Shown: in pieces, positions 32,959 through 53,861 of the stretch
Numbering within the stretch: the stretch's first letter is position 1
Layout: the number at the start of each line of letters is the position of its first letter
NCBI GenBank assembly: GCA_035693145.1
Contig: DASSHA010000161.1
Location: 12,310 to 76,309 of the forward strand
Origin: Candidatus Limnocylindrales bacterium
GTDB lineage: Bacteria; Chloroflexota; Limnocylindria; Limnocylindrales; CSP1-4
Direction of reading: 5' to 3'
Length of the DNA: 64,000 nucleotides
Made by a program: the position numbers and the translations under genes
The notes under the pieces: generated by a model
Databases searched by the model: none
The model's input: the letters and a program-made list of their open reading frames with translations, nothing else
Told to the model about the DNA's origin: nothing

Positions 32959-32969
32959 GGATGGCTCCT

Positions 32970-39935: not shown

Positions 39936-40012
39936 GTTCGGCAGGGGCCTCTCAGTCCGGGGCAGCCACTGGATGGAATGACGGTGCTGGTCGCGAAGAC
40001 ATATGAGGTATA

Positions 40013-40038
40013 ACGTCCGACCTCGGTAACGCTACACT
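40013..40038 (+). promoter_or_regulatory. GTCNGAC box (ACGTCCGACC) and possible -10 TACACT in the lower-GC divergent spacer
   Basis: Box at 40013-40022 and TACACT at 40033-40038, with a weak -35. TTGACA is present on the reverse strand at 40047-40042. Confidence 0.35.
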
Positions 40039-40076
40039 CCGTGTCAAGCCAGCCGTCGATGAGAGGGGAGCGGACC

Positions 40077-41177
40077 GTGAGCCAGCTCGAGATCCAGCAG
40101 CTGCGCAAGACATTCGGCCACGTGGTCGCCGTCGACAACCTCGACCTGGAGATCGATCGCGGCGAGCTCGTCTCGCTCGTCGGTCCCAGCGGGTGTGGCA
40201 AGACGACCACGCTGCGGATGGTTGCCGGTCTCGCCGAGGCCGACCGTGGCCGCATCCTCCTCGAGGGCCGCGACGTCACCCACGACCCCGCAAGCCGGCG
40301 AGGCATGGGCGTCGTCTTCCAGTCCTACGCCCTGTTCCCGAACATGACCGCGGCCGAGAACATCGCCTACGGGCTGGTCGTCCGGAAGCGCAAGTCGTCC
40401 GACGTCAAGCGAAAGGTCGCGGAGCTCGTCGAGCTGATCCAGATCGGCGACGGGGCCGAGCGGTACCCGCACCAGCTGTCCGGCGGCCAGCAGCAGCGGG
40501 TCGCCCTCGCCCGTGCGCTCGCCATCGAGCCACCCGTCCTGCTGCTCGACGAGCCCCTGTCCGCCCTCGACGCGGCCGTGCGCCTGACCCTTCGACTCGA
40601 GATCCGGCGCATCCAGCGCAGCCTCGGGATCGCGACGATGTACATCACCCACGACCAGGAGGAGGCGCTGTCGATCTCCGACCGGGTCGCGGTCATGCGC
40701 GACGGCCGCGTGGAGCAGCTCGGCACGCCCGAGGAGATCTACACGACGCCGGCGAACGACTACGTTGCCCGCTTCGTCGGCACGTCGAACAGGCTGCCCG
40801 TCCGGGTCCTCGACGGTGACGGATCGCTCGTCGAGTGGCAGGGCCGGCAGGTGGTGATCGCACCCAACGACCGGTTCCCGTCGGGCAGCACCGCGGCGAT
40901 GGTCGTCCGTCCGGAGCGCATCCACGTCAGCCCGCGGATGAACGGCGGCGACGCGGGCAGCTGGCCCGGGACGGTGGTCGAACGGACCTTCCTCGGCGCC
41001 GTTACCCGGTTCACGGTTCGCGTCGGCGAGGAACTCCTGCTGGCCGACGTTCCCGGCGAGGCGACCGCCGCCGTTCGCCTCACGATCAACGATCCCGTCG
41101 CGGTCGCGTTCGAGCCCGGTGGCGGCCGCCTCATCCCGCTCTCTGCCTCCTCCCCGGTCGACGTCGCGACGGCATGA
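40077..41177 (+). CDS. ABC transporter ATP-binding protein (PotA/MalK-like), probable partner of the divergent SBP and permease genes
   Basis: Walker A GPSGCGKTT, signature LSGGQQQRVALARAL and Walker B LLLDEP. GTG 40077 has GGGGAG 7 nt upstream. The listed ORF begins at 40041. Confidence 0.9.
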   Translation: MSQLEIQQLRKTFGHVVAVDNLDLEIDRGELVSLVGPSGCGKTTTLRMVAGLAEADRGRILLEGRDVTHDPASRRGMGVVFQSYALFPNMTAAENIAYGLVVRKRKSSDVKRKVAELVELIQIGDGAERYPHQLSGGQQQRVALARALAIEPPVLLLDEPLSALDAAVRLTLRLEIRRIQRSLGIATMYITHDQEEALSISDRVAVMRDGRVEQLGTPEEIYTTPANDYVARFVGTSNRLPVRVLDGDGSLVEWQGRQVVIAPNDRFPSGSTAAMVVRPERIHVSPRMNGGDAGSWPGTVVERTFLGAVTRFTVRVGEELLLADVPGEATAAVRLTINDPVAVAFEPGGGRLIPLSASSPVDVATA

Positions 41178-41974
41178 CCCGGCGGGAGGGCAGCGCGCCG
41201 CGGCGCTCCCCGCTGGTGATCGCCCATCGCGGCCAGCGGGCGAGCTTCCCCGAGCAGACGCTCGAGGCGTACGAGGCCGCGATCCGCCTCGGCGCGGAAG
41301 CGATCGAGACGGACGTCCAGCGCACGCGAGACGGCCGGCTGGCGATGATGCACGACCTCACGCTCGACCGGACGACGAACGGCCGCGGCCCGATCGCGGA
41401 TCTCGACTGGGCCGCCGTTCGAGCGCTCGACGCGGGCAGCTGGTTCGGCGCGGGGTTCGGCGGTTGCCGGGTCCCGTCGCTCGACGAGACGATCGACCTC
41501 GTGGTCGGCGCCGGATGCGGGCTCTGCGTCGAGATCAAGGGCTCGGCCGCGGACGCACCGACGACCGCCACCGCGGTCGCGCGACTGCTGCGCGAGCGTG
41601 CCGTGCTCGACCGGGTCTACGTCTCGTCGTTCGACCACCTCGCGCTGGCGGCGGCGAGGGCCGAGGTCGACGGCCTGCTCCTCGCCCCCGAGCGCCTGCC
41701 CGAGGCCGGCCCGTCGGACCCGCCGGCCGCGGCGGCGCAGGCGGTCGCGCTCGGCGCGGCCGCGCTCCAGCACCGCTGGGAGGACCTGACGCCTGACGTC
41801 GTCGACGCCGTCCACGCCGTCGGCACGGCGGTCTGGGCCTGGCCGATCGACACGCTCGAGTCGATCCGACACAGCGTCGCGGTCGGAGCCGATGCGATCA
41901 TCGGCGACGACGTCGTGCTGCTCGTCGCAGGTCTCCGCGGATCCGTCCCGCCGGCCACCTCCGTCCCGTCGTGA
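41174..41974 (+). CDS. glycerophosphodiester phosphodiesterase (GDPD family), copy 2
   Basis: Carries PLVIAHRGQRASFPEQTLEAYEAAIRLGAEAIETDVQRTRDGRLAMMHDLTLDRTT. ATG 41174 overlaps the ATPase stop (ATGA). Confidence 0.9.
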   Translation: MTRREGSAPRRSPLVIAHRGQRASFPEQTLEAYEAAIRLGAEAIETDVQRTRDGRLAMMHDLTLDRTTNGRGPIADLDWAAVRALDAGSWFGAGFGGCRVPSLDETIDLVVGAGCGLCVEIKGSAADAPTTATAVARLLRERAVLDRVYVSSFDHLALAAARAEVDGLLLAPERLPEAGPSDPPAAAAQAVALGAAALQHRWEDLTPDVVDAVHAVGTAVWAWPIDTLESIRHSVAVGADAIIGDDVVLLVAGLRGSVPPATSVPS

Positions 41975-42783
41975 CGAGGACCCGGCAGGCGGCCGATCCG
42001 CCGCTCGTCGTCCTCGTCGACTTCGACGGCACGATCGCCCGACTCGACCTGAGCGACGAGGTCATGCGGCGCTATGCCGATGTCGCGGCCTGGACGCCGC
42101 TCGAAGCCGCGTACCTGGATGGCCGGATCGGGTCTCGCACGCTGCTCAGCCGCCAGGCAGCACTCCTGGGCGGCGAGACCGAGCGGATCGCCGGCATGGT
42201 CGAGGGCGAGGAGCTCGATCCGGAGTTCCGACCGTTCGTCGACGAGCTCCGCGAGCGCCGCGTGAGCGTCGAGGTCGTGAGCGACGGCTTCGGGTTCTTC
42301 GTCCGCCCGTCGCTCGAGCGTGTCGGCCTCGGCGATCTCCCGGTCTTCACCGCCAGGACGTCATTCCCGGCCGGCGTCGTGAGCATCGACTTCCCCGCCG
42401 GGCATCCGCGCTGTCGCGTCTGCGGGACGTGCAAGCGCGAGCGAATCCTCGCCCACCAGGCGGCGGGCCGGTTCACGATCTTCGTCGGCGACGGGTTCAG
42501 CGATCTCTACGCCGCCGCCCACGCGGATCTCGTCTTCGCGAAGGACCATCTCGCGGCCCTGTGCGCGGATCGCGACTGGCCGTACGAAGCCTGGACCACG
42601 TTCGCCGACATCCGCCTGGTGGTTGCGGAGCTCCTCGAGCGTGGCGTTCCGGAGCCGCGGCTCCGGCCGTTCGTCTGCGGCCCCGAGGTCTGGCCGCCCG
42701 GGACGGGCGAGCCGCTCTGGGACCGCCCACCGGCGCCCCGACCGCTCGACGCGGCGCCCCGACCGCTCGACGCGGCGCGCTGA
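41971..42783 (+). CDS. HAD-IB phosphatase, MtnX-like (2-hydroxy-3-keto-5-methylthiopentenyl-1-phosphate phosphatase family)
   Basis: Carries VLVDFDGTI, the Cys cluster CRVCGTCKRE, and FVGDGFSDLYAAAHADLVFAKDHL. This layout matches my recollection of Bacillus MtnX. GTG 41971 overlaps the GDPD stop (GTGA). Confidence 0.75.
   Translation: MTRTRQAADPPLVVLVDFDGTIARLDLSDEVMRRYADVAAWTPLEAAYLDGRIGSRTLLSRQAALLGGETERIAGMVEGEELDPEFRPFVDELRERRVSVEVVSDGFGFFVRPSLERVGLGDLPVFTARTSFPAGVVSIDFPAGHPRCRVCGTCKRERILAHQAAGRFTIFVGDGFSDLYAAAHADLVFAKDHLAALCADRDWPYEAWTTFADIRLVVAELLERGVPEPRLRPFVCGPEVWPPGTGEPLWDRPPAPRPLDAAPRPLDAAR
42731..42772 (+). repeat. perfect 21-bp tandem duplication, in frame, in the HAD phosphatase C-terminus
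   Basis: CGGCGCCCCGACCGCTCGACG appears twice (42731-42751 and 42752-42772), followed by a partial third copy CGGCGC. It encodes ...APRPLDAAPRPLDAAR. Confidence 0.9.
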
Positions 42784-42789
42784 CCGCGT

Positions 42790-42808
42790 GGGCAGGCGGG
42801 ACCTGCCC
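42790..42808. terminator. GC hairpin between convergent genes (GGGCAGG-CGGGA-CCTGCCC), a possible bidirectional terminator
   Basis: 7-bp stem with a 5-nt loop in the 39-nt convergent spacer between 42783 and 42823. No U-tract. Confidence 0.35.
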
Positions 42809-42822
42809 GCTGGTCGTGTCGG

Positions 42823-43323
42823 TCAACCGGCCCCCGTCGACAGGCGCTGCTCCAGCCGGTCGATCTTGGCGACCTTGCGCGTCGACGCGCCGCCCGCGAA
42901 CTCGGACTCGAGCCAGGCGTGCACGACGGTCTTGGCCGACTCCGGCCCGATCACCCGCGCGCCGAGCGTGAGGATCTGGGCGTCGTTGCTCTTCCGGGCA
43001 CGCTCGGCCGAGTAGACATCGTGCGCGAGAGCGGCCCGAACGCCGGGCACCTTGTTCGCCGCGATCGCCATCCCGATCCCCGTCCCGCAGATGAGGATGC
43101 CCCGATCCGACAGGCCATCGCGGATGGCGCACGCGACGCGCTCGGCGACGTCGGGGTAGTCGATCTCGCTGCCGTCGACCGAGCGGTCGGTCGCCCCGTC
43201 CAGCTCGTCGGGCCGAAACGTCCGGACGTCGTGGCCCATGGCCACGAGGTCGGCGGCAATGACGTCGAGAAGCTCCACGCCGGCGTCGTCGGCGCCGATG
43301 AGGATCGGGTGCAGCGTCGCCAT
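42823..43323 (-). CDS. rpiB: RpiB/LacA/LacB family sugar-phosphate isomerase
   Basis: Begins MATLHPILIGADDAGVELL and carries GILICGTGIGMAIAANKVPGVRAAL. ATG 43323 lies 1 nt after the TIM-paralogue stop. The upstream part of the listed ORF is junk. Confidence 0.85.
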   Translation of the reverse strand: MATLHPILIGADDAGVELLDVIAADLVAMGHDVRTFRPDELDGATDRSVDGSEIDYPDVAERVACAIRDGLSDRGILICGTGIGMAIAANKVPGVRAALAHDVYSAERARKSNDAQILTLGARVIGPESAKTVVHAWLESEFAGGASTRKVAKIDRLEQRLSTGAG

Positions 43324-43324
43324 G

Positions 43325-44113
43325 TCAGGCGCTCCTCTCGTGCATTCGTGTGGTGAGTGGGTCGTGCGGGATCGGCGACGCGGCGATCGACGCGAAGCGG
43401 CGGGGATCGAGCGCAGCCCGCCCGACGAACAGACCGGCCACCGCCGGAATGGCCAGGAGATCGACCGTGCTCGCCTCGTCGACGCTGCCGCCGTAGACCA
43501 CACGGCGGACCGTCGCGCCGCGGTCGGCGAGCCAGCGGTCGATGGCGGCGTGGACCCGCTCGACGTGGTCGGGAGCCGCGGGCGTGGCCCCCTCCCCGAT
43601 GGCCCAGACGGGCTCATAGGCGACGATCACGCGGTCCAGGTCAGCTGGGGCGAGCGTGCCGAGCGCCCCGACGAGCTGCCGCTCGACGACCCGGCGCGCC
43701 TGACCAGCGGGTCCCTCCGTGCGCTCACCGATGCAGACCACGGGGATGAGGTCCCAGCGCAGGGCCGCGCCAACCTTCGCGCGAATGACCGCGTCCGACT
43801 CGGCGTGGTCGCGTCGTCGCTCGGAGTGTCCGACCTCGGCGTAGCGGCAGCCGAGGTCGGCGAGCATCGGCGCGGAGACGTCGCCGGTGTGTGCGCCGGC
43901 ATCCTCGGGATGGACGTCCTGGCCGCCGAACCCGATGCGCGAACCGGCGAGGGCCTGCCGGGCGACGAAGAGCGCCGGGAACGGCGGCAGCACGAAGAGA
44001 TCGCGCGTCGCGGTCAACGGGTCGAGGAGGGGCCGCGCCTCGGCGAACCAGCGCGCGGCCTCGCTCGGGGTCAGGTTCATCTTCCAGCTGGTGCCGATCA
44101 CGGGGCGCGTCAC
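43325..44113 (-). CDS. triosephosphate isomerase family protein (operon-embedded paralogue)
   Basis: Carries IGTSWKMN, AEVGHSERR, VVCIGE, AYEPVWAIGEG and VYGGSV. GTG 44113 overlaps the RLP stop (GTGA). The listed 818-aa ORF is a frame artefact upstream of this point. Confidence 0.85.
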   Translation of the reverse strand: MTRPVIGTSWKMNLTPSEAARWFAEARPLLDPLTATRDLFVLPPFPALFVARQALAGSRIGFGGQDVHPEDAGAHTGDVSAPMLADLGCRYAEVGHSERRRDHAESDAVIRAKVGAALRWDLIPVVCIGERTEGPAGQARRVVERQLVGALGTLAPADLDRVIVAYEPVWAIGEGATPAAPDHVERVHAAIDRWLADRGATVRRVVYGGSVDEASTVDLLAIPAVAGLFVGRAALDPRRFASIAASPIPHDPLTTRMHERSA

Positions 44114-45375
44114 GCGGTGCCCCGCCCGCCTCCGGCGCGCATCGTCCGGTCGGCGTCGCCGTGCCGGAGCACGGCCTCGGCAATGGCCGCCTGGATCGCT
44201 CGTCCGCCCGCGGCCGCACCGTCGGGGTGACCCTGGATCGCGCCGCCCACGGCCACGATGACGTCGCACCCGAGAGCCGCGACGAGCTGGTCGACGTGAT
44301 CGGCCGTGATCCCGCCGCCGGCCATCGGCATCGTGGCCGCGACGCGCCCACCGGCAACGGGCTCGCGCAGACCCGCGATCGTGGCACGGTAGGCCCCGTC
44401 CGACAGCGGTCGTGGCGCGTGTGGCGTGCTGGTGAGCACCGCATCGGCGCCCGCGAGCCGGAGGATCCGCGCCAGCGCCCCGTGAGCGATCCCACCCTCG
44501 GCCGCGCCTGTCCACGTCTCGATGCCCGCGACATGGGCGAGGATCGGGACGCCGGCCGCGGCTGCCAGCTCGGCAAGCGCGTCCAGCCCGAGGGTCAGCG
44601 GCGTCACCATGACGGCGGCGGCGCCGGCCTCGACGGCGGCACGCGCGGTCGCCGTCAGGCGGCTCGGCGTCGTGGTCACGTGGGCGACGTAACGCGTCCG
44701 GTGTCCGGTCGTCGCGGCGACGGCATCGATCGCGGCGACGTACGCCCTCGTCCGGTCGGCAACCCGCGAGAAGCCGGGGTCCGCGAGCAGCTCGTCGTCC
44801 TTGATCAGGTCGACACCGCCCCGTGCGCTCTCGGCCGCGAACTCGGCCCCGACCTCCGGCGGAAAGCCGGTGCACGGCTTGATCATGTTCAGCAGCAGCG
44901 GCCGGTCGTCGATGCCCGTGATCGCCCGCCAGCCCGCGACGCCGAAACGCGGTCCGGGGAAGCCGTCGACGAACCGGGCAGGAACGTCGACGCCGACGAC
45001 GTGCATCGCGATCGAGGTCGACGGGTCGTTGCCGATCGTGGTCGTGAGCAGCATCGCGAGCGATTCGCCGAGGTTGGCGAGCGGGAAGGCGACGGCCAGC
45101 AGCCAGCGGCCGCGAGCCGGGACGCCGGCGACCTCCTCGTCGCGCTCGGTCCGCCGGAGCTGCACCACTCGGGCGCCGTGCCGACGCCGCATCTCGTCGG
45201 TGATGCCGGGGACCGTCTTCCACGTCCCGAGGCTCTGGCCGAGGGCGAACGCGTCGGCGGCGGCGATTGCCGCGCTCTCGTCGGCGGGCAGCCCGGCGAG
45301 ATAGGTCACGACGACGTCCTCTCGCGGCTCGGGCCCCGCGATCGGCGGCCGACGCTGTGCCGAACCGTCGGTCAT
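44110..45375 (-). CDS. RuBisCO large-subunit-like protein (form IV RLP)
   Basis: Carries DRPLLLNMIKPCTG (K175 loop, with Cys at the K177 position), GGVDLIKDDE (K201/D203/E204 motif), PMAGGGIT and VGGAIQGHPDG. ATG 45375 overlaps the kinase stop (ATGA). Confidence 0.85.
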   Translation of the reverse strand: MTDGSAQRRPPIAGPEPREDVVVTYLAGLPADESAAIAAADAFALGQSLGTWKTVPGITDEMRRRHGARVVQLRRTERDEEVAGVPARGRWLLAVAFPLANLGESLAMLLTTTIGNDPSTSIAMHVVGVDVPARFVDGFPGPRFGVAGWRAITGIDDRPLLLNMIKPCTGFPPEVGAEFAAESARGGVDLIKDDELLADPGFSRVADRTRAYVAAIDAVAATTGHRTRYVAHVTTTPSRLTATARAAVEAGAAAVMVTPLTLGLDALAELAAAAGVPILAHVAGIETWTGAAEGGIAHGALARILRLAGADAVLTSTPHAPRPLSDGAYRATIAGLREPVAGGRVAATMPMAGGGITADHVDQLVAALGCDVIVAVGGAIQGHPDGAAAGGRAIQAAIAEAVLRHGDADRTMRAGGGRGTA

Positions 45376-46988
45376 GGCGCGACGGTCCTCGCCGGCTGTG
45401 GGCCGAGCGCAGTGGTCGCCGTCGGAAGGAGCGTCGACCGCGGAGCGATCGTCGCTGGCAGGGCGTCGACCTCGGCCGGGGCGGCGACCGGCTGGTCCAC
45501 GATGAACAGTGGCGCGAGCGCGGCATACAGCCGGCGGAACCGCTCGAAGCCGGCGTCCAGCCGGCCCCGGCGCTCGGGGTCGGGCACGAAGGTCCGCTCG
45601 ACGGCGACGATGTCACGGACGAACCGGAGGTCGCGCTGGGCGCCGATCCCGACGAGCGCGCACGCGGCCGCGCCCACCGCGGCGGCGTCCTGAGGCTGCC
45701 GGATGGATGCGATCGGTCGATCGAGGACGTCGGCGATGATCTGCGTCCAGGCCGCACCGATGAAGCCGCCGCCGACGCCACGCACCTCGCCGATGGGCGT
45801 GCCGAAGGCGGCGCCGTACTCGAGGGCCCAGCGCATCTGGTACGCGACCCCCTCCATGAGTGCGCGCAGCAGATGGCCTCGTCGATGCCGCAGCCCGAGA
45901 CCGACGAACGCGCCGCGGACCCGGTCGTCGAAGACCGGCACCCGCTCCCCGCTCAGCCACGGGGCGAACACGAGGTCGTCCATCTCGTCGACGACGGCCC
46001 CGACCTCGGCGTCGAGACGCGCCAGCTCCGCAGCAGATGGGTCGCTGCCGTCGCCGAGTGCCCGGAGCAGCCAGGAAAGCGCGCCGCCGCCCGTCGCGAC
46101 CTCGAGCCAGAGGATCCAGTGCCGCGGATCGGCGTGACCGATGACCCCGAGCTGGCCGGCCGGATCCGCCACGGGCTGATCGACCGTGACGCCGAAGTAG
46201 ACGGCCGTGCCGAGGCTGACGTGCGCGTCGCCGGGGTCGGTCGCGCCGGCACCGAGCTGGCTCGCCGGAACGTCACCCGTTCCGACGACGACCGGGATCC
46301 CGCTGCGTAACCCGAGGCGGCGCGCGACCGAGGGCTGCAGCTGGCCGGCGATCGCGGTCGCCGGCTCCACGGCGGGGAGGCGCTCGATCGGCACGCCCGC
46401 CGCCGCGCAGGCCTCCGCGGACCAGCGCCGTTCGATCGGATCGTAGAGCCGGAAGGCGAGGGCGCCGGCGGGGTCGATGACGGCGCGGCCCGTGAGTCGG
46501 AGGACGATCGCCTCCTTGCAGTCGAGCAGCCAGCGGGTCCTGTCCCATGCGTCCGGCCGGCGGTCGCGGAGCCACTCGATCTTCGGGACGACGTCCTTGG
46601 CCGTGATGATCGAGCCGAACAAGCGTGTCTGGGCACGCCGGTCGAGCCGATGAGCCAGCGCCTCGGCTTCGCGGACGGCGCGCTGATCGAGCCAGCTGAG
46701 CATCGGGATCGTCTGGCCGCCGGCCGCGTCGACCGGCGCCAGGTCGAACATCTGCGCGGTCAGCCCGATCGCCTCGACGTCGCCCGCGCTGGCCCCACCG
46801 GCGCCGAACAGCTCGAGCGTCGCCGCCTCGATCGCTCGCTCGATCTCGTCCAGATCCTGGTGGACCGCGCCGTCCTCGCCGGTGACGAGTTGATAGTCGC
46901 GCCGGGCAGAGCGGACGATCCGACCGTCGCGGCCGACGACGACCGCCTTGACCCCGCTCGTCCCGATGTCCCAGGCGAGAACCGTCAC
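45372..46988 (-). CDS. FGGY family carbohydrate kinase
   Basis: Begins VTVLAWDIGTSGVKAVVV, then GLTAQMF, VVVGTGDVPASQLGAG and GVGGGFIGAAWTQIIADVL. GTG 46988 overlaps the aminotransferase stop (GTGA). Confidence 0.85.
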   Translation of the reverse strand: MTVLAWDIGTSGVKAVVVGRDGRIVRSARRDYQLVTGEDGAVHQDLDEIERAIEAATLELFGAGGASAGDVEAIGLTAQMFDLAPVDAAGGQTIPMLSWLDQRAVREAEALAHRLDRRAQTRLFGSIITAKDVVPKIEWLRDRRPDAWDRTRWLLDCKEAIVLRLTGRAVIDPAGALAFRLYDPIERRWSAEACAAAGVPIERLPAVEPATAIAGQLQPSVARRLGLRSGIPVVVGTGDVPASQLGAGATDPGDAHVSLGTAVYFGVTVDQPVADPAGQLGVIGHADPRHWILWLEVATGGGALSWLLRALGDGSDPSAAELARLDAEVGAVVDEMDDLVFAPWLSGERVPVFDDRVRGAFVGLGLRHRRGHLLRALMEGVAYQMRWALEYGAAFGTPIGEVRGVGGGFIGAAWTQIIADVLDRPIASIRQPQDAAAVGAAACALVGIGAQRDLRFVRDIVAVERTFVPDPERRGRLDAGFERFRRLYAALAPLFIVDQPVAAPAEVDALPATIAPRSTLLPTATTALGPQPARTVAP

Positions 46989-48199
46989 GACGTCACCGCG
47001 GTGGGCAGTCGCGCGGCCGGGGCGGCGGCATCGCCGTCGCCGGCGTTCGCGCCCGGGGCGAGGTGCGTCATCGCCCCGCCCGTGTCCGCCGGGGCGGGGA
47101 CGTACGGACCGCCGGCGATCGCCCGCCCGAAGACATCGATGAAGCGATCGTTCTGGTCGACCGTCCCGATCGTGACCCGCACGAAGGCGTCCTGCAGGCG
47201 ATGGGCCGTCATCGCCCGCAGCAGCATGCTCTCGCGGCGCGCGAACTCGACGATCTCGCCGCTCGTCCGGCCCGTTCCGGACACGTCGATGAGGATGAAG
47301 TTGCCCTCCGACGGAAACGGGCGCACGCCGTCCATCCCGAGGAGCGCGGCCATCACCCGCTCCCGCTCGCTCGAGATGAACGACCGGCGCTCTTCGAGCT
47401 CCTCCGGGTGCTCCATCGCCGCGAGTCCCGCCCGGAGCGCGACCAGGCTGAGGCTGAACGGGATCCGAAGCCGGAGGAGGGCATCGACGAGCGTCGGCGA
47501 AGCGATGCCGTAGCCGAGCCGCAGCGCGGCGAGCCCGAACGCCTTGGACATCGTCCGGGTGACGATGAGGTTCGGGTGCCGGGCGACGAGGTCCGCGAAC
47601 GAGGGCGACCGGCCGCACTCGAGATACGCCTGGTCGACGATCGTCGGTGCGCCCGTCCGAAGCACCCGTTCGAGGTCGGCCTCGGTCCAGCTGTTGCCGG
47701 TCGGGTTGTTCGGACTGCACAGGAAGATCGCCTTGGTCCGCTCGTTGACGGCGTCGACGATCGCATCGACGTCGAAGCCGAACTCCTCGGTCATCGGAAT
47801 GAGCAGGGGCTCACCTCCGTAGAGCCGGGTCTGCGACTCGAAGAAGGCGTACGTCGGCACCGAGATCACCACCTCGTCGCCGAACCCCACGAACGCCCGG
47901 GTGACGACGTCGAGCACCTCGGTCGAGCCGTTGCCGAGGATGACGCTCGAGGCGTCGACCCCGTTGAACGCCGCGATCGCATGGCGAAGGTCCTCGCCCG
48001 AGTTCGGATAGAAGTTCGAGATCTGGAGCGCCGCCGCCGCCGCGGCGATGACCGTCGGCGACGGCGGCAGCGGGCACTCGTTGGACATGAGCCGATCCAG
48101 CTCGCGGTGCCGCCAGGCGAAATCGTGATGCCGCGCGTCGTATGGCGACGCGGATGCGATGCCGGGCCGCAGGTAGTCCTCGATCGGGATGGGGCTCAT
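46985..48199 (-). CDS. class I/II PLP aminotransferase, HisC-like (histidinol-phosphate aminotransferase / CobD family)
   Basis: Carries MSNECPLPPSP, LCSPNNPTGN, and TRTMSKAFGLAALRLGY with the PLP lysine. GAGGAG lies upstream of the ATG. Confidence 0.85.
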   Translation of the reverse strand: MSPIPIEDYLRPGIASASPYDARHHDFAWRHRELDRLMSNECPLPPSPTVIAAAAAALQISNFYPNSGEDLRHAIAAFNGVDASSVILGNGSTEVLDVVTRAFVGFGDEVVISVPTYAFFESQTRLYGGEPLLIPMTEEFGFDVDAIVDAVNERTKAIFLCSPNNPTGNSWTEADLERVLRTGAPTIVDQAYLECGRSPSFADLVARHPNLIVTRTMSKAFGLAALRLGYGIASPTLVDALLRLRIPFSLSLVALRAGLAAMEHPEELEERRSFISSERERVMAALLGMDGVRPFPSEGNFILIDVSGTGRTSGEIVEFARRESMLLRAMTAHRLQDAFVRVTIGTVDQNDRFIDVFGRAIAGGPYVPAPADTGGAMTHLAPGANAGDGDAAAPAARLPTAVTS

Positions 48200-48218
48200 C
48201 GATCTCCTCGAGAAGGGC

Positions 48219-48246
48219 GGCCGCCCGGCTGGGGGTCCGGGCGGCC
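48219..48246 (-). other. intercistronic perfect 10-bp GC hairpin (GGCCGCCCGG-N8-CCGGGCGGCC)
   Basis: Read directly. It lies between the permease stop (48264) and the aminotransferase SD/ATG (48199). No clear U-tract. Confidence 0.4.
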
Positions 48247-48263
48247 TTGGGTCGGGATGCGGG

Positions 48264-49763
48264 TCAGACGGCGGCCTCGGCGACGGCCGGTGGCGCCTCG
48301 GCGTCAGCTGCGCCCGGCACGCCGGCTTCTCCGCGAAGCAGCCGCCTCCGGAGCACGGCGGCGTACCAGACGGCCGCGATGACGAAGAAGCCGCCGGCCA
48401 TGAGGGCCGTCTGCTGGTTCGCCTCGGGGATCGTCAGGACCGCGATGACGGCGAGCGACCAGACGAACGCGATCGTGCGGATCGGGTTCGCCCAACGGCC
48501 GAGGTCGAACGAGCTGCGACCGGTCAGCAGCCCTCGCCGCGCGGCGAGGATGGCGCCGAGGATCGTGAGCGCGTAGACCGCGTAGTACCCGACGGACGCC
48601 ATTCCGACGATCAACGACATCGCCTGCGCCGCGATCGTCGAGCCGATCAGGACGAGCGCGATCGACAGGCTCGCGGCGACGAGCAGCGAGCCGGACGGCG
48701 AGCCCGTCGTTCGGGACACGCGTGCCAGCGTCGGCGACGCCGGCAGCATGTTGTCGCGGGACAGGGAGAAGATCAGTCGCGACGAGGCTGCCATGTTCGC
48801 GAGCCCACCCGCGTAGAGGGCGACCATGGCAACGACCTCGAAGATCAACGCACCGGTCGAGCCGAGAGCGCCTTCGAGGACGTGGACGATCGGCACGGCC
48901 GCCGATGTCGTCGCACCGAGATCCTGGATGTTGATCGTCAGAGCGATCAGCATGAAGAACCCGATGACGACGGCCAGGATCAGCGACGTCACGACCGCCT
49001 TCGGGACGTTCCGCCGCGCGCCCTGTGTCTCCTCGGCGAGGTCGGCCGCTCCCTCGAAGCCGGTCAGGACCCAGATCCCGAGCAGGCCGGACAGGAGGAA
49101 CGCGGTCAGGAAGCCCGCGTCGCCCGGAACGGACGTCGTGAGGAAGCCGAGGTTCTGGACCGGGTGGGTGATGAACCCGACGACGAGCAGGATCAGGGTC
49201 AGCACGACCGACAGGCCGAGCTCGGCCGTGTAGGCCGCGATGTTGTTGATCCGGGAGGCGATCCGGACGCCGGCGAGGTTGATCAACAGCTGGGAGACGG
49301 TCAACAGGATCGTCGTGACGGCGATCGTCCCGACGTTGATGTCGACACCCAGCCGGTTCAGGAGGATCGGCGACAGGCCCAGGTTCAGCCCGGTGAAGCC
49401 GGGCGTGAACGCCATGAGACCCGCCCAGCCGGTAAACCAGCCGTAGTGCGAGTTGACGAGTCGGCTCGTCCACTGGAAGGCGTAGCCGCTGAGCGGCATT
49501 CGGCCGGCCAGGTCGGCGAGCACGAGGGCGACGACGATCTGCCCGATCGCGACGATCGGCCAGGTCCAGATGAACGCCGGACCGACCGTGCCGAGCGAAT
49601 ACGCGTAGACGGTGAAGATCCCGGCCGTGATGCACATGCACGAGATCGAGATCGAAAGCGAGCTGAACAGGCCCATCGAGCGGTTCAGCTGTGGCTCGTA
49701 GCCGAAGGACCGCAGCTCGCGGTCGTCATCGTGCTCCGCCTGGGACGCGCGGGACAGGGACAT
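48264..49763 (-). CDS. APC superfamily amino acid/amine permease
   Basis: About 12 TM segments, with GLFSSLSISISCMCITAGIF...GRMPLSGYAFQW. ATG 49763 (MSLSRASQ) is preceded by GAGGAGGAGG. The listed ORF starts 15 codons earlier. Confidence 0.85.
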   Translation of the reverse strand: MSLSRASQAEHDDDRELRSFGYEPQLNRSMGLFSSLSISISCMCITAGIFTVYAYSLGTVGPAFIWTWPIVAIGQIVVALVLADLAGRMPLSGYAFQWTSRLVNSHYGWFTGWAGLMAFTPGFTGLNLGLSPILLNRLGVDINVGTIAVTTILLTVSQLLINLAGVRIASRINNIAAYTAELGLSVVLTLILLVVGFITHPVQNLGFLTTSVPGDAGFLTAFLLSGLLGIWVLTGFEGAADLAEETQGARRNVPKAVVTSLILAVVIGFFMLIALTINIQDLGATTSAAVPIVHVLEGALGSTGALIFEVVAMVALYAGGLANMAASSRLIFSLSRDNMLPASPTLARVSRTTGSPSGSLLVAASLSIALVLIGSTIAAQAMSLIVGMASVGYYAVYALTILGAILAARRGLLTGRSSFDLGRWANPIRTIAFVWSLAVIAVLTIPEANQQTALMAGGFFVIAAVWYAAVLRRRLLRGEAGVPGAADAEAPPAVAEAAV

Positions 49764-49888
49764 GGATGCGTCCTCCTCCTCATCGCTGATACCGCGCGGT
49801 CCGGCCACTCCGGCGCGCGGCCCATCACCCCGGGCTGTCGGTCATCGGCCCTCCTGCGACAGCTGCGGTGGTTCGGTCGACCGGCCTT

Positions 49889-50641
49889 CTAGCGCGCATC
49901 GGCCGGGCGGGCGTGGCGGATGCGGCGGACGCTCACGTTCAGGACGGTCGGGACGTAGTGCTCGGTCGAATGGAGGACCGGTCGATCCGCGGTCGACCGC
50001 TCGACCTGGTCCATCCGGAGGAGCGGTTGTCCGTCGGCGACGCCGAGCAGGACGGCGAGGTCCGCGTCGGCCGAGACCGCGGTGAGCTCGGCGAACCCGC
50101 CGACGAGCTCCACGCCGCAGCGCTCCTCGAGAAACCGATAGACCGACCCTCCGTCGTACGCAACGGATCCGACGATCGCGGCCGGGATCGCGTCGATCGC
50201 ATGTGCCGCCGGCACGTCGTTCACGCGGATGACGCGCTCGATCCACAGCACCGTCGCGTCGTCGGCGAGCTCGAGCCGCTCGGCGATCGGGTCCGGTGCC
50301 CGCGCGAGATTCGCCCGCACGAGCTCCACGCCGAGCTGCTGGCGCGCCGCCGCCACCGCCTCGGTGACCCCGATGTCCAGGTCGAACCGGCTCGAGACGG
50401 TGGGCGGCACCTGGGTCACGAACGTTCCGACGCCGTGGACGCGCCGGACGAGGCCGTCCCCTTCGAGGCTGCGGAGGACTTCCCGGATCGTCGGTCTGCT
50501 GACGCCGTAGGCGCTGGCGAGCTCCGGCTCGGATGGCAGCCGGTCGCCCGGGCGGTAGCTGTCGGCGAGGTCCGTGAGCACCTCGCCCCGGACGGCGACG
50601 AAGCGTGGCGTCCGGGTGCGGCGGCGAGCCTGAGCCGTCAT
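49889..50641 (-). CDS. GntR family transcriptional regulator, HutC/UTRA subfamily (paralogue 3)
   Basis: wHTH LPSEPELASAYGVSRPTIREVLRSLEGDGLVRRVHGVGTFV followed by a UTRA-like domain. Confidence 0.9.
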   Translation of the reverse strand: MTAQARRRTRTPRFVAVRGEVLTDLADSYRPGDRLPSEPELASAYGVSRPTIREVLRSLEGDGLVRRVHGVGTFVTQVPPTVSSRFDLDIGVTEAVAAARQQLGVELVRANLARAPDPIAERLELADDATVLWIERVIRVNDVPAAHAIDAIPAAIVGSVAYDGGSVYRFLEERCGVELVGGFAELTAVSADADLAVLLGVADGQPLLRMDQVERSTADRPVLHSTEHYVPTVLNVSVRRIRHARPADAR

Positions 50642-50648
50642 AGGACGT

Positions 50649-50678
50649 AAGATGTCAGACGACTAACGCCGATGTCAA
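50649..50678 (-). promoter_or_regulatory. candidate promoter, TTGACA-N18-CATCTT, 7 nt upstream of ATG 50641 (possibly leaderless), with a GTCNGAC box
   Basis: On the reverse strand: -35 at 50678-50673 and -10-like CATCTT at 50654-50649. The box CGTCTGAC abuts the -10. There is no SD before the ATG. ATGTCA direct repeats occur on the + strand at 50652, 50672 and 50691. Confidence 0.45.
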
Positions 50679-50693
50679 TCCAGCGCGAATATG

Positions 50694-51551
50694 TCAGTCG
50701 GTCGGGCCGAGCTCCCCCAGCACGGCCTCGTGGAGCCGTCCGTTCGTTGCCAGGCCTTCGCCGCGCTCGAGGCTCCGACGCCCGTCGAAATCGGTGATCC
50801 GGCCGCCGGCTTCCTCGACGAGGATCCACGGGGCGGCCAGGTCCCAGGGATGGAGATCCTGCTCGAGCATCGCCTCGGCGGTGCCGTCGGCGATGAGCGT
50901 GTAGCCCCAGAAATCGCCGAACCCGCGCTCACGCCACGCGGCATGGATCAATCGCTCGAAGCCCGCGGCCACCCGAGACGCCTCCATGTCCCGAATGGAA
51001 CGGAACAGGACCTGCGACGCGTCGAGACGTTCGACGTTCGACACGGCGAGCCGGCGCGGCCCGTCAGGGTTCGCCGGTCCACCGGCGACCCACGCGCCGC
51101 CACCCCGCATCGCCCACCAGCGCTGGCCGAGCGCCGGCGCGCTGATCATCCCGACCTGGATCTCACCGTCGCGCTCCACCGCGATGAGCGTTGCGAACAA
51201 CGGCAGTCCGCGCATGAAGTTGTGCGTGCCGTCGATCGGATCGATGTACCAGCGCTCGCCGCCGGTTCCAGCCTCCGCCTCGCCGTACTCCTCGCCCACG
51301 AGGCCGTGCGCGGGATAGCGGCTCGCGATCCGGTCGCGAATCGTCCGCTCCACGGCGCGGTCGGCCGCGGTGACGTACGAGCCGTCGGCCTTGCGGTCGA
51401 CGCCGAGCTCCGTGCGAAACGCGCCGAGCGCGATCGCGTCGGCCTCGTCGCATGTCGCATGACAGAAGGAGAGCCACTCGTCGAGCTCACGGGCATCGCC
51501 GCGGCGCCGAGTGGCGGACCATTCGACGCCGGTGGCCGGGACGTCGTCCAT
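50694..51551 (-). CDS. inositol monophosphatase family phosphatase (IMPase / HisN-like)
   Basis: Carries VTAADRAVERTIRDRI, GEEYG and WYIDPIDGTHNFMRGLP. Confidence 0.85.
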   Translation of the reverse strand: MDDVPATGVEWSATRRRGDARELDEWLSFCHATCDEADAIALGAFRTELGVDRKADGSYVTAADRAVERTIRDRIASRYPAHGLVGEEYGEAEAGTGGERWYIDPIDGTHNFMRGLPLFATLIAVERDGEIQVGMISAPALGQRWWAMRGGGAWVAGGPANPDGPRRLAVSNVERLDASQVLFRSIRDMEASRVAAGFERLIHAAWRERGFGDFWGYTLIADGTAEAMLEQDLHPWDLAAPWILVEEAGGRITDFDGRRSLERGEGLATNGRLHEAVLGELGPTD

Positions 51552-51574
51552 CGGGGGCGCGTCCCGCCGCGCCG

Positions 51575-53023
51575 TCAGCTTGCGGCAGGCACGCGCGACC
51601 GAAGCGACGCCGGCAGCGGCCGATCGTGGTCCAGCGACCGGGCGTACCGGTCCACCATCTCGCGGCTGCCGACGACCTTCAGCTGCTCGAACAGGAACGC
51701 GACCTTCTTCGCCTGGTCGGCGAGAATCTCATCCTTCGTGGCCAGGTCCCACAGCTCGCGCTTGAACGGCCCGATCGTCTTCTTGCGGGTCGTGTAGACG
51801 AACTGCCGGTCCGTCTGGTCGGCCTTGCGCTCCTCGGCCGCTTCGGCGAAGCACCAGTGGTCCATCCGGTCGCGCAGCTCGGCCGGGAAGGCGGGATGGT
51901 CGAACAGCAGGTTCTGGAAGCCGGTGGCCAGGTGGATCTCGGCGGTCTCGACCGCCGGGAACTTGTGGAACGCCTCGTCCGGCAGGGTCGAGGCGCCGTG
52001 CTGGACCGTTCCCGCCAGCCCATGCTCGCGGGCGACTGCGCCGAGCTTCTCGTGGACGGTGAAGTCGACCGCGACGCTCGCGACGGTGCCGTCCGGCAGG
52101 ACGACGCCACCGTGGCTCGTGCCGGTCTGGACGCTCACCTTGCTGATCCCGGGCTTGCCCGCCGCCTTCCGAGCGAGCTCCGCGCCGTAGCCGGCGAGGT
52201 ACGCCCGGAGCTCCTCGACCGTCGAGTTCTCCTTGCCGACCTCCCCGATCTCGCCGCCGACGCTGATCGTCACACCGTCCGGCTCGAGCGAGCGGATGAG
52301 CGCCGTCATGTCGGCCGTCTGCGTGTAGTTCGCCCGCTGCTGTTCGTCGACGGAGGGCTTCGAGAGGTCGACGAGCGTGGAGCTGTCGATGTCGATGTTC
52401 GCGTAGCCGGCGTCGATGGCGAGCCGGCAGGCCCGTCGGATCTCCTCGGTCATCGCCTCGGGATCGGCAGCGTACTTCTTGGCGTTGAACTGGTAGTGGT
52501 CGCCCTGGATGAAGACGGGCCCGCGCCAGCCGGCGGCGATCGCACCGGCGAGGACGTTGGTTGCATATTCGGTCGGTCGCTGGAACGTGTACGTCTGCTC
52601 GCTCCTCGCGAGCTCGAGGATGACGGCGCCGACGTCGTGCGCAGATGCGGTTTCGAAGATCGTCCTCGCCATGTCGAACGTCTGGGCACGGATGTTGATC
52701 GCCGGCACCGTGAAGCCGTTGACCTCGCCGCGTCCGCGCGCCCGGTAGAGCTCCTCGATCGAGGCGCTCCGCGCGCCGAGCGCCTGCGCCGCCTGCCACA
52801 CGATCCAGCGAGCCGCCGCCGTCTGCTCCGACTCGTCGGGGGAGAACGTCGCGGTCCAGGCCAGCGTCCGGATACCGCGGTCACGGAGCGCGGCCTCGTC
52901 CTCGACGACCAGCGACTCCCCGTCGACGCGGACGACGCCCCGGAGTGCGTCGAGCAGCTCGTCGACGGAACCCGCGACGAGGTGGGCGGCCGGCGGCTCG
53001 GATCTCTCGTGAACGTGCGGCAT
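51575..53023 (-). CDS. class II (metal-dependent) fructose/ketose-bisphosphate aldolase family protein, long form (about 480 aa)
   Basis: Carries GFTVPAINIR, IQGDHYQ, QTGTSHGG and VQHGASTLP. ATG 53023 is preceded by GGAGG at a 6-nt spacing. The listed start, GTG 53053, lies upstream of that SD. Confidence 0.8.
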   Translation of the reverse strand: MPHVHERSEPPAAHLVAGSVDELLDALRGVVRVDGESLVVEDEAALRDRGIRTLAWTATFSPDESEQTAAARWIVWQAAQALGARSASIEELYRARGRGEVNGFTVPAINIRAQTFDMARTIFETASAHDVGAVILELARSEQTYTFQRPTEYATNVLAGAIAAGWRGPVFIQGDHYQFNAKKYAADPEAMTEEIRRACRLAIDAGYANIDIDSSTLVDLSKPSVDEQQRANYTQTADMTALIRSLEPDGVTISVGGEIGEVGKENSTVEELRAYLAGYGAELARKAAGKPGISKVSVQTGTSHGGVVLPDGTVASVAVDFTVHEKLGAVAREHGLAGTVQHGASTLPDEAFHKFPAVETAEIHLATGFQNLLFDHPAFPAELRDRMDHWCFAEAAEERKADQTDRQFVYTTRKKTIGPFKRELWDLATKDEILADQAKKVAFLFEQLKVVGSREMVDRYARSLDHDRPLPASLRSRVPAAS

Positions 53024-53267
53024 CGGGCGCCTCCGGTTGGTTCTGGTCGTCACGCTTCGTCGCGTTCATGGTAGCCGCGCCGCTCATCGGGCCTCGTCGG
53101 TCGCCGGTCACGCGCGGCCCCGACGACCCGTCATGATCCGGACAGTGCGGGAGGGTCATGCGCGAGCGACACGGGTTCCAGGCAACAGGCCGCATCTCCA
53201 CTCGCCGGGGGGCCGGTTCCGTAGCGTTTCGTCGCCCTGACGCCCCGGCCTTGACGGCATTCGGTTC

Positions 53268-53861
53268 GTGACAGCTCCGCCGAACACTTCCGGGACCACC
53301 GGCGTCTGGACCGATGAGGGGCACGGGAGGAACGAGCTGGACGAGGTTCGGCGGGCACAGCAGGGTGAGCACGACGCGTTCGATCGACTCGCGGAGCAGC
53401 ATGCGGCCGAGCTCTACCGGGTCGCGGTCGTCATCGTCGGTCCCGACGACGCCGCCGACGCGACCCAGGACGCGCTCCTGTCGGCGTGGCGGGAGCTGCC
53501 GCGCCTTCGGGATCCCGACCGATTTGGAGCCTGGCTCCGGCGGATTCTCGTGAACGGCTGCCGCGACCGGCTGCGCACGGCGCGTCGGAGCGTCCGCGAG
53601 ATCCGTGTCGTCCCGATCGACGATCAGCTCGCCATCGCGGCGCCCGATCAGCACGGTCGTGTCGAAACCGGAGCCGCGCTCGGGCCGGCGGTCGCCCGTC
53701 TCGTCGCCGACCATCGCGCCGTCGTCGCTCTTCACTACGCAGCTGACCTGTCGATCCGCGAAGTCGCCGAGGCGCTCGACATACCGGTCGGGACCGCCAA
53801 ATCGCGCCTCGCCGCCGCGCTCACGGCGCTTCGGGCCGAGATCGGCGAGGAAGAGCGATGA
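53268..53861 (+). CDS. ECF (group IV) RNA polymerase sigma factor
   Basis: Region 2 FDRLAEQHAAELYRVAVVIVG...DATQDALLSAWRELPRLRDPDRFGAWLRRILVN and region 4 LSIREVAEALDIPVGTAKSRL. Confidence 0.85.
   Translation: MTAPPNTSGTTGVWTDEGHGRNELDEVRRAQQGEHDAFDRLAEQHAAELYRVAVVIVGPDDAADATQDALLSAWRELPRLRDPDRFGAWLRRILVNGCRDRLRTARRSVREIRVVPIDDQLAIAAPDQHGRVETGAALGPAVARLVADHRAVVALHYAADLSIREVAEALDIPVGTAKSRLAAALTALRAEIGEEER

Follow-up and report, generated by a model that had tools for sequence, protein, structure and literature searches.

Erythritol is catabolized in Brucella and Rhizobium by the kinase EryA, the dehydrogenase EryB, the 3-epimerase EryC and the two isomerases EryH/TpiA2 and EryI/RpiB. The tetritol pathways of Mycobacterium smegmatis, reportedly described by Huang in 2015, employ LerK, LerI, DerK and DerI, and in D-apionate catabolism a RuBisCO-like protein (RLP), the 3-oxo-isoapionate-4-phosphate decarboxylase OiaX/OiaC, is said to feed LerI and DerI, as Carter reportedly found in 2018. 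The Ler and Der enzymes of M. smegmatis were used in PMC10733421, where EryC is given as the D-erythrulose-1-phosphate (D-Eu1P) 3-epimerase, LerI as converting L-erythrulose-1-phosphate (L-Eu1P) to D-erythrulose-4-phosphate (D-Eu4P), and DerI as converting D-Eu4P to erythrose-4-phosphate. PMC6302742 summarizes the D-apionate route with its RLP, and the functions listed for RLPs in a 2023 review (PMC10176493) are enolase, isomerase, decarboxylase and oxygenase only. Here we analyze a stretch of 64,000 nucleotides (the window; G+C content about 70%) from a metagenome-assembled genome (MAG) of Candidatus Limnocylindrales (Chloroflexota; soil/freshwater), which encodes a form IV RLP within a seven-gene operon on the minus strand at 42823-50641.

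An earlier note on this DNA had proposed that an imported amino compound is funneled by the operon to erythrose-4-phosphate and the pentose phosphate pathway, and this is still the best reading, its end steps being supported by LerI-type residues. We regard it as probable that the operon serves catabolism and leads, by LerI/DerI-type steps at its end, to erythrose-4-phosphate. From gene context and active-site residues, the RLP is predicted to be a D-Eu1P 3-epimerase, i.e. an analog of EryC, and the substrate is most likely a 2-amino-2-deoxy-tetritol (2-aminobutane-1,3,4-triol). The complete route, from an amino-tetritol to its 1-phosphate, to D-Eu1P, through 3-epimerization by the RLP and on by LerI and DerI to erythrose-4-phosphate, is a proposal that we hold with slightly more doubt than confidence. 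The wider claim is tentative and distinctly more doubtful: that RLPs of the 'NMIKPCTG' family are ketose-1-phosphate 3-epimerases, a new reaction class of the RuBisCO superfamily that replaces EryC in tetritol catabolism, and that the Limnocylindria operon degrades an unrecognized natural 2-amino-tetritol.

A conserved operon around the RLP

The operon, its control region and the gene directly upstream comprise the following features, in the order of transcription:

50694..51551, minus strand: HisN-like IMPase-family phosphatase, directly upstream of the GntR gene (Pfam Inositol_P, 174 bits)
50647..50678, minus strand: candidate promoter/operator in the 52-nt spacer upstream of the GntR gene (direct sequence reading)
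49889..50641, minus strand: regulator of the GntR/HutC subfamily with a helix-turn-helix and a UTRA effector domain, first gene of the operon (Pfam GntR, 69 bits; UTRA, 89 bits)
48264..49763 (open reading frame to 49808), minus strand: APC-superfamily permease (Pfam AA_permease_2, 152 bits)
46985..48199, minus strand: HisC-family pyridoxal phosphate-dependent aminotransferase, AT (Pfam Aminotran_1_2, 178 bits)
45372..46988, minus strand: FGGY-family kinase (FGGY_N, 143 bits; FGGY_C, 102 bits)
44110..45375, minus strand: form IV RLP of the 'NMIKPCTG' family (Pfam RuBisCO_large, PF00016, 113 bits; RuBisCO_large_N, PF02788, 28 bits)
43325..44113, minus strand: TIM paralog (Pfam TIM, 229 bits)
42823..43323, minus strand: RpiB-family isomerase (Pfam LacAB_rpiB, 157 bits)

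The seven open reading frames (ORFs) in 42823-50641 all lie on the minus strand, and profile searches of Pfam and NCBIfam with each of them back the families that the earlier note had read from the letters. Its description of the four junctions downstream of the AT is also accurate when the sequence is read directly: the GTG start of the FGGY gene overlaps the AT stop codon (GTGA, 46988-46985), the FGGY and RLP genes meet at ATGA (45375-45372) and the RLP and TIM genes at GTGA (44113-44110), and a single nucleotide separates the TIM stop codon (TGA, 43327-43325) from the RpiB start (ATG, 43323-43321). The AT, FGGY, RLP, TIM and RpiB genes are thus linked by three overlaps and one 1-nt gap, and the overlapping junctions agree with the translational coupling of the RLP to its neighbors that had been claimed. 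While the seven operon members stand as proposed, the conserved HisN-like phosphatase gene at 50694-51551 had been overlooked; it is found upstream of the GntR gene in all AT-containing loci with enough flank, both those with an RLP and those with a Dak-family kinase (see below), and is probably a separate transcription unit associated with the operon. As also noted before, no prk or small-subunit gene occurs among the scanned neighbors of the RLP. Since the order HisN-like/GntR/(permease)/AT/FGGY/RLP/TIM/RpiB is repeated in more than 15 independent contigs, with RLP identities of 53-83%, the arrangement is not a chance juxtaposition. This order is also what the genomic neighborhoods of homologs with RLPs of 57-83% identity display.

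We surveyed the RLP family in one genome per species using the motifs NMIKPCTG or DL[IV]KDDEL, and retained 80 loci. Relatives of the RLP were recovered from at least 528 species, the phyla being Chloroflexota, Actinomycetota and Bacillota, and from one Bathyarchaeia MAG. They come from soil, freshwater and gut bacteria, and cultured carriers include Enterocloster lavalensis, Clostridium lamae, Agrococcus jejuensis and Branchiibius cervicis. Among the 80 loci kept, relatives at 53-83% identity belong to Limnocylindria-like Chloroflexota, and those at 37-50% to Actinomycetota, Bacillota, other Chloroflexota and one Bathyarchaeon. Of the loci, 58 have 5 kb or more of flanking sequence on each side; in 43 of these 58 a TIM paralog or an RpiB gene lies within 8 kb of the RLP, and in 35 both do. 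Comparison of these neighborhoods shows the RLP adjoining a TIM paralog and RpiB in three phyla; the trio is not unique to the window operon but makes up the conserved center of a large RLP family that crosses phyla. The AT, on the other hand, is limited to the Chloroflexota clade, and the AT/kinase front end is specific to Limnocylindria-like Chloroflexota.

What surrounds the core differs between phyla. In actinobacterial loci (L041, L053, L070, L082, L039, L031 and L036) the RLP is accompanied by TIM and RpiB, by one or more FGGY kinases and a GlpD-like FAD dehydrogenase, and by a DeoR regulator and an ABC transporter for sugars; the Nakamurella locus L039 has a Dak1/Dak2 kinase in addition. 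This gene set matches that of the Brucella erythritol locus (EryA, EryB, EryD, EryH, EryI) except for EryC, and the RLP is the sole enzyme in these erythritol-like loci without an assigned role. No AP_endonuc_2/EryC-like gene was found in any of the loci by tblastn with the window's AP_endonuc_2 protein and ORF clustering, which is a weak test. Between the window FGGY kinase and those of the actinobacterial loci, identity is no higher than 24-35%. In Bacillota (e.g. L029, L034, L048, L058 and L071, from gut and anaerobic Firmicutes), RpiB, TIM and RLP genes stand with a Gat/Asc-type phosphotransferase system (PTS; IIA, IIB, IIC), a DeoR regulator, a FucA/OtnC-like protein of the class II aldolase family and often UPF0261 (PRK02399). 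In a Chloroflexota subclade (L015, L016, L018 and L021; RLP 52-57% identical) the partners are an APC permease, E1-alpha, E1-beta and E2 subunits resembling acetoin/pyruvate dehydrogenase, and an SDR protein, mostly without TIM or RpiB, and these RLPs may have a different function inside the same clade. Since contexts differ, the family need not be isofunctional. An apparent RLP-TIM fusion (P0057, on an ENA contig of 8.6 kb) was rejected as a sign that the two proteins are functionally coupled; it is a frameshifted contig artefact, the TIM part being out of frame and of low complexity after about 100 residues.

Active-site residues of the RLP and the isomerases

The RLP is 100% identical to HET7028246.1, which is encoded on an 85 kb contig of a Candidatus Limnocylindrales MAG and named by PGAP 'RuBisCO large subunit C-terminal-like domain-containing protein'. 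The four large-subunit motifs pointed out earlier (NMIKPCTG, GGVDLIKDDE, PMAGGGIT and VGGAIQGHPDG) are all present in its translation. No model of NCBIfam release 20 claims the protein: the nearest is MtnW (NF007095), at 221.6 bits against a cutoff of 409, and the scores against TIGR03332 (MtnW/YkrW; 188.3 bits, cutoff 513.6) and the OiaX model NF042437 (168.2 bits, cutoff 700) are lower still. Among solved structures, the Alicyclobacillus RLP 4nas and the Geobacillus MtnW 2oek come closest (E about 1e-50), and the RLP of R. rubrum (PDB 3qfw), at 107 bits, is one of the weaker RLP matches.

For a survey of residues, the window RLP was aligned with 83 relatives and with 2oek and 4nas, and numbering was transferred to spinach RbcL (given in brackets) from its known motifs and conserved spacing, e.g. 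the 26 residues between K175 and K201 in both. The metal/carbamate triad K192/D194/E195 (K201/D203/E204) is invariant in 83/83 relatives, and K166 (K175), N116 (N123), H281 (H294), T51/W52 (T65/W66) and the P1-phosphate glycines are kept in 82-83 of the 83. Lost from the family are E60, R295, H298, H327 and the loop-6 Lys (K334); the window protein has G46, V282, I285 and L314 at the first four of these positions and no loop-6 Lys. The alignment thus bears out the loss of His327 and Lys334 that had been noted by eye and adds that of R295 and H298. With the carboxylation and second-phosphate residues lost and the metal-carbamate site kept, the protein is, as had been argued, a form IV RLP and not a carboxylase. 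Judged from these residues, it retains the enolization machinery and one phosphate site but has neither a second phosphate site nor the carboxylation residues, which fits a mono-phosphorylated substrate resembling ribulose bisphosphate (RuBP) at C1-C3.

The general base of MtnW, Lys98 (G. kaustophilus numbering; 2oek), aligns with Asn116 of the window RLP in the HMMER alignment; Asn is found at this position in 82/83 family members and Lys in 2oek and 4nas. In a neighbor-joining tree with 2oek as root, the RLP family forms a branch of its own that includes neither MtnW (2oek) nor 4nas. We therefore rejected the automatic JGI name of MtnW, given the sub-cutoff scores, the change of the catalytic Lys98 to Asn and the wrong context: none of the methionine-salvage genes mtnK, mtnA, mtnB, mtnX and mtnD was found among the window neighbors or in related loci. 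Assignment as OiaX was rejected on its 168 bits against a cutoff of 700, and no DUF1537 kinase or PdxA-like gene is present among the window neighbors or the related loci scanned.

The TIM paralog scores below the canonical NCBIfam TIM equivalog cutoffs. Its residue pattern, S-K-H-E-E-R, is that of PDB 11ef, deposited as 'L-erythrulose-1-phosphate isomerase', whereas Thermus and canonical TIM have N-K-H-E-T-G. The catalytic K, H and E are retained, and the differences lie at three positions:

catalytic Asn11 position (window Ser9): Ser in the window protein and 11ef (GTSWKMN in both), Asn in canonical TIM
loop 6 (window Glu174): Glu in the window protein and 11ef, the Thr of IGTG in canonical TIM
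loop 8 (window Arg232): Arg in the window protein and 11ef, the second Gly of GGASL in canonical TIM

These active-site and loop substitutions led us to reject a canonical housekeeping TIM. Comparison with one solved structure, 11ef, suggests that all three are diagnostic of a LerI-type family. The loop-8 Arg occurs in 49/49 RLP-linked TIM paralogs; Ser takes the place of Asn11 in those of Chloroflexota and Actinomycetota, while those of Bacillota keep Asn11. The match to 11ef supports the tetrulose-phosphate type of TIM/RpiB pair (LerI/DerI, EryH/EryI) that had been claimed. The RpiB homolog, whose best PDB match is 5ifz, passes the NCBIfam RpiB subfamily model (165.9 bits, cutoff 135) but neither the DerI equivalog NF051858, a model built on Rhizobiales sequences (165.6 bits, cutoff 240), nor the actinobacterial RPI equivalog (129.5 bits, cutoff 168).

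A predicted amino-tetritol route and its alternatives

The front end of the operon is where an amino substrate would come in. The permease scores below cutoff on both TIGR03428 (192 bits) and TIGR00907 (163 bits). Its likely start, ATG 49763, follows a AGGAGGAGGA ribosome-binding site and is supported by a 500-aa ortholog in locus L001. The protein is closest to the amino acid/choline transporter type, is found only in the window's own subclade, and would fit a cationic amino alcohol. The AT passes the hisC model TIGR01141 marginally (284.8 bits, cutoff 276.55) and fails all more specific hisC models; PGAP names it histidinol-phosphate transaminase, and its top PDB relatives are all histidinol-phosphate aminotransferases, followed by threonine-phosphate decarboxylases. 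Enzymes of these two kinds bind a phosphate ester on the carbon adjoining the amine. The two C-terminal Arg residues of the AT align with those of 8bj1, which is consistent with phosphate-ester binding, although it is not a test of specificity. The FGGY kinase, which always follows the AT in both RLP-type and Dak-type operons, has XylB as its best NCBIfam match (289 bits, below the cutoff of 380), and the best-scoring model of the HisN-like phosphatase is TIGR02067 (HisN; 247.9 bits, below the cutoff of 275). We predict that the FGGY protein is an amino-polyol kinase and that the AT converts a 2-amino-polyol 1-phosphate to a 2-ketose 1-phosphate. The earlier note had placed transamination before phosphorylation; since the HisC family and the family of the HisN-like neighbor both act on 2-amino-alcohol 1-phosphates, the kinase most likely acts first and the AT second.

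A sister form of the operon bears on the role of the RLP. It was reached via AT homologs in two independent contigs (L085, 7344-14575; L087, 6363-13601), between which protein identity is 76-89%. The order there is HisN-like, GntR, AT (64% identical to that of the window), FGGY (56%), a HAD phosphatase of PGMB type, a Dak1/Dak2 kinase and RpiB, and these operons have no RLP, no TIM paralog and no decarboxylase. The Dak kinase is single-chain (NF011049, 666 bits), and in the AT tree the Dak-type variant and the RLP-type operons form sister clades. DerK of M. smegmatis is said to be a Dak-family erythrulose kinase. Dak-family kinases phosphorylate erythrulose in other tetritol pathways (PMC5992420). 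Most simply read, both variants turn the AT product, an erythrulose 1-phosphate, into D-Eu4P, the Dak type through dephosphorylation and rephosphorylation and the RLP type through RLP and LerI. Since the L isomer is the substrate of LerI and D-erythrulose that of a DerK-type kinase, the AT product is probably D-Eu1P, and the RLP would supply the D-to-L epimerization. The replacement of RLP and TIM by a phosphatase and a kinase speaks for a catabolic direction and against the RLP being a decarboxylase. Of the two alternatives that had been offered for the RLP, rearrangement (as a 3-epimerase) thus fits best, and decarboxylation is disfavored by the decarboxylase-free L085 and L087.

The route that we propose would begin with uptake of the amine by the APC permease. 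The FGGY kinase would phosphorylate the primary hydroxyl adjoining the amino carbon, and the HisC-type AT would turn the resulting 2-amino-1-phosphate into the 2-keto-1-phosphate, D-Eu1P, mirroring the HisC reaction between histidinol phosphate and imidazole-acetol phosphate. The RLP would then enolize D-Eu1P at C3 by means of its carbamate and Mg2+ and reprotonate it from the opposite face, giving L-Eu1P as in the EryC reaction. Finally, the LerI-type TIM paralog would yield D-Eu4P and the RpiB homolog D-erythrose-4-phosphate, which feeds into the pentose phosphate pathway. The first partial reaction of RuBisCO itself is the abstraction of the C3 proton from a 1-phospho-2-keto-3-hydroxy substrate, and misprotonation to the C3 epimer, xylulose bisphosphate, is a side reaction; an RLP epimerase would therefore be mechanistically economical. 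The substrates of all steps, like the reaction of the RLP, are what we infer from this combination of families, context and residues.

Two alternatives give the RLP another reaction. It could be a beta-keto-acid decarboxylase of the 3-oxo-isoapionate-4-phosphate type, acting on a carboxylated C5 keto phosphate derived from an amino acid to produce L-Eu1P for LerI and DerI. Such a series, from RLP through L-Eu1P to LerI and DerI, reportedly has its precedent in D-apionate catabolism (outlined in PMC6302742), an amino acid could pass an APC permease, and the match to the OiaX model, though far below threshold, is significant at 168 bits. That score, however, is set against a cutoff of 700 and lies below that of the MtnW model, the neighbors scanned include neither a DUF1537 kinase nor a PdxA-type oxidoisomerase, and L085 and L087, which have the orthologous AT and FGGY and neither RLP nor decarboxylase, still end in RpiB. 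As the polyol kinase and GlpD-like dehydrogenase of the actinobacterial loci also yield uncarboxylated ketose phosphates, we consider a decarboxylase unlikely. Alternatively, a C5 amino-polyol (an amino-pentitol) could be converted by kinase and AT to a pentulose-1-phosphate, isomerized by the RLP through carbonyl migration to pentulose-5-phosphate and passed by RpiB to ribose-5-phosphate. The R. rubrum RLP does use a 1-phospho-2-keto pentose, 5-methylthio-ribulose-1-phosphate (as cited in PMC10176493), the RpiB lies above the general subfamily cutoff and below that of DerI, and genes for a DMGDH-like demethylase and a choline/APH-type kinase, observed near some related loci, would fit N-methylated amino-polyol head groups. 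But this would leave a TIM paralog with all three LerI-specific substitutions without an obvious role, the R. rubrum protein 3qfw matches at only 107 bits, and both the Dak-kinase variant and the erythritol-like actinobacterial loci indicate C4, making a C5 route quite unlikely.

The remaining alternatives concern the his-like genes. Were the AT and the IMPase-family gene simply housekeeping hisC and hisN, the operon would be an ordinary one for tetritols or tetruloses, with FGGY an erythrulose or erythritol kinase and no amino substrate. The AT does score just over the TIGR01141 cutoff and bears the PGAP name of a histidinol-phosphate transaminase, and the best match of the phosphatase is HisN; yet both proteins are at or below equivalog cutoffs, and no other his gene is present among the ORFs scanned between about 30.7 and 59.6 kb of the window. 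The AT stands behind a HutC-type repressor and a permease, its stop codon overlaps the FGGY start, and AT and FGGY are adjacent in every variant, including the distant L098 and L099. Moreover, the operon has no dehydrogenase gene, and without the AT it would lack a keto-forming enzyme, so that this explanation is very unlikely. Even less probable is a biosynthetic direction, in which erythrose-4-phosphate would be converted through erythrulose-4-phosphate to erythrulose-1-phosphate, aminated by the HisC-like and dephosphorylated by the HisN-like enzyme to an amino-tetritol solute or lipid head group. It would account for the phosphatase, the HisC-like/HisN-like pair would copy the last two steps of histidinol formation, and the isomerase and epimerase steps are reversible (PMC10733421). 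However, the ATP-dependent FGGY kinase and the uptake permease would have no biosynthetic role, the HAD and Dak variant makes sense only towards erythrulose-4-phosphate, and the phosphatase lies outside the translationally coupled block. HutC/UTRA repressors, in addition, usually control catabolic operons.

Several points weigh against the amino-tetritol route with an epimerizing RLP. To our knowledge, no natural 2-amino-tetritol has been recorded as an environmental compound, and a kinase-first catabolic route gives the conserved HisN-like phosphatase no role. Thermus TIM is a better match to the TIM paralog (204 bits) than 11ef is (164 bits), and the RpiB, below the DerI equivalog cutoff, could be a ribose-5-phosphate isomerase. 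RLPs of the family also occur in other contexts, namely with E1/E2 and SDR proteins, with UPF0261 (L025, L035 and L051) and, in Bacillota, with PTS and class II aldolase-like genes. The invariance of Cys168 (at the K177 position) within the family is partly a matter of ascertainment because NMIKPCTG was one of the scan patterns, and the absence of EryC from the actinobacterial loci, coming from one tblastn query and ORF clustering, is weak evidence.

Should the proposed epimerase be correct, an RLP that only enolizes and reprotonates a mono-phosphorylated RuBP-like substrate would represent a fifth reaction type and the simplest possible use of the RuBisCO active site, in which the enolization and misprotonation side reaction of RuBisCO has been turned into the main reaction. 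Each new RLP function has clarified the evolution of RuBisCO chemistry, and in this case a function would be assigned to a large family that includes cultured strains. The AT/kinase front end points to amino-polyols as a class of nutrients for the Limnocylindria, which are abundant but uncultured, and the synthetic erythrulose-monophosphate cycle of formaldehyde assimilation (PMC10733421) would gain, in the RLPs, alternatives to EryC.

Control region, neighboring genes and relation to known systems

The GntR regulator is below every NCBIfam equivalog cutoff, and its position is conserved in related loci. The spacer upstream of it is AT-richer and contains TTGACA at 50678-50673 and an imperfect palindrome, AGTCGTC-T-GACATCT, at 50664-50650. 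The 14-mer GTCTGACATCTTAC has a single exact occurrence in the window, and the block TTGACAT...GTCTGACATCTTAC is conserved upstream of GntR in nine loci (L001, L004, L006, L007, L010, L086, L093, L094 and L022), the palindromic core being AGATGTC-T-GACATCT in L001. Related GTC(C/T)GACAAC repeats occur in the 58%-identity clade and in the Dak-variant loci. These features make 50647-50678 a candidate for an autoregulated operator of HutC type overlapping the promoter. A consensus scan of 41500-53500 returned no promoter-like site and three terminator-like matches, all on the plus strand and no more than in shuffled sequences. The 64-nt spacer between permease and AT contains a G+C-rich hairpin, GGCCGCCCGG-8 nt-CCGGGCGGCC (48219-48246, minus strand), without a T tract, which may serve in intercistronic processing or stability or act as a partial attenuator.

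Some AT genes occur in other surroundings. L098 (3528-10720) and L099 have a GntR/UTRA regulator, an APC permease, two ORFs without a Pfam match (329 and 260 aa), the AT (46%) and FGGY (41%), with no RLP, TIM or RpiB after FGGY; the presence of AT and FGGY without the isomerase module in L098 suggests that the kinase/AT pair is a portable 'amino-polyol entry' module. In L095 (5981-7258) and L096 an AT 63-65% identical to that of the window, and inside the RLP-type clade of the AT tree, stands without FGGY or RLP and adjoins a luciferase-like monooxygenase. The 492-aa ORF at 51575-53053 (minus strand), directly upstream of the HisN-like gene, has a weak class II fructose-bisphosphate aldolase match (46.8 bits) and was rejected as a part of the system, having no homolog in any of the 83 related loci.

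On its other side, the operon is met by a converging cluster at 36944-42783 that is syntenic in L001, L003, L004, L006-L008, L010, L019 and L086, includes a permease gene on the minus strand, and has these further members:

41971-42783, plus strand: SerB-like HAD protein
41174-41974, plus strand: GDPD
40041-41177, plus strand: ABC ATPase
39147-39935, minus strand: GntR regulator of this cluster
37885-39015, minus strand: SBP_bac_6 protein

This cluster may supply head-group alcohols from glycerophosphodiesters. A separate unit at 31993-36040 (minus strand) resembles genes for glycerophospho-inositol head-group utilization: besides a GFO/IDH/MocA oxidoreductase and a xylose-isomerase-like protein (AP_endonuc_2), it encodes a second GDPD and a third GntR/UTRA regulator; a weak copy of the operator-like motif (GTCTGACCATTTAC) lies within it at 35098-35111.

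As regards novelty, full-text literature searches returned no description of this RLP family or gene set. The earlier statement that no RLP pathway with this gene set has been described holds in so far as no published account was found, but an RLP feeding LerI and DerI reportedly has its precedent in D-apionate catabolism, with an RLP of a different clade, and the logic of the pathway is a variant of known tetritol catabolism.

Like the erythritol genes of Brucella and Rhizobium, the operon unites an FGGY kinase with two isomerases, a TIM-family protein predicted to act on L-Eu1P and one of the RpiB family, and would likewise end at erythrose-4-phosphate; the window TIM paralog has the residues that seem diagnostic of LerI/EryH, and GlpD/EryB-like dehydrogenases accompany the RLP in actinobacterial loci. 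It differs in that the keto group would be made by a HisC-type AT instead of an EryB-type dehydrogenase, that the RLP stands in the place of EryC, a xylose-isomerase-like barrel, and that it has an APC permease, not a sugar ABC system, and a GntR/HutC regulator. Neither EryB (GlpD-like) nor EryC (AP_endonuc_2) is encoded in the window operon, the AP_endonuc_2 gene at 31993-32958 belonging to the separate GDPD/MocA operon 10 kb away. With the tetritol pathways of M. smegmatis the operon has in common a pair formed by a LerI-type and a putative DerI-type isomerase, and its sister operons L085 and L087 resemble the DerK/DerI branch in their Dak-family kinase and RpiB; entry, however, would be by amine uptake, kinase and transaminase, unlike the polyol dehydrogenase and erythrulose kinase of M. 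smegmatis, where no RLP is known to take part. In the D-apionate pathway, as would be the case here, an RLP product, L-Eu1P, is reportedly taken to erythrose-4-phosphate by TIM-family and RpiB-family isomerases, but the window RLP is in a different clade, has no DUF1537 kinase or PdxA-like enzyme beside it and implies no carboxylated substrate. By solved structure and NCBIfam model, the nearest relatives of the RLP are the 2,3-diketo-5-methylthiopentyl-1-phosphate enolase MtnW/YkrW (PDB 2oek, 2zvi) and the Alicyclobacillus RLP 4nas, with which it shares the Mg/carbamate triad and a single phosphate site; from MtnW it is set apart by Asn for Lys98, scores far below cutoff, a separate branch in the neighbor-joining tree and a neighborhood without methionine-salvage genes. 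Finally, the AT and the phosphatase are of the same families as HisC and HisN of histidine biosynthesis and would carry out the same chemistry, the interconversion of a 2-amino-alcohol 1-phosphate with a 2-keto 1-phosphate and a dephosphorylation, but the AT of the window is coupled to a kinase, lies in a sugar-phosphate operon under a repressor and has no other his genes nearby, and the predicted side chain of its substrate is a diol rather than an imidazole.

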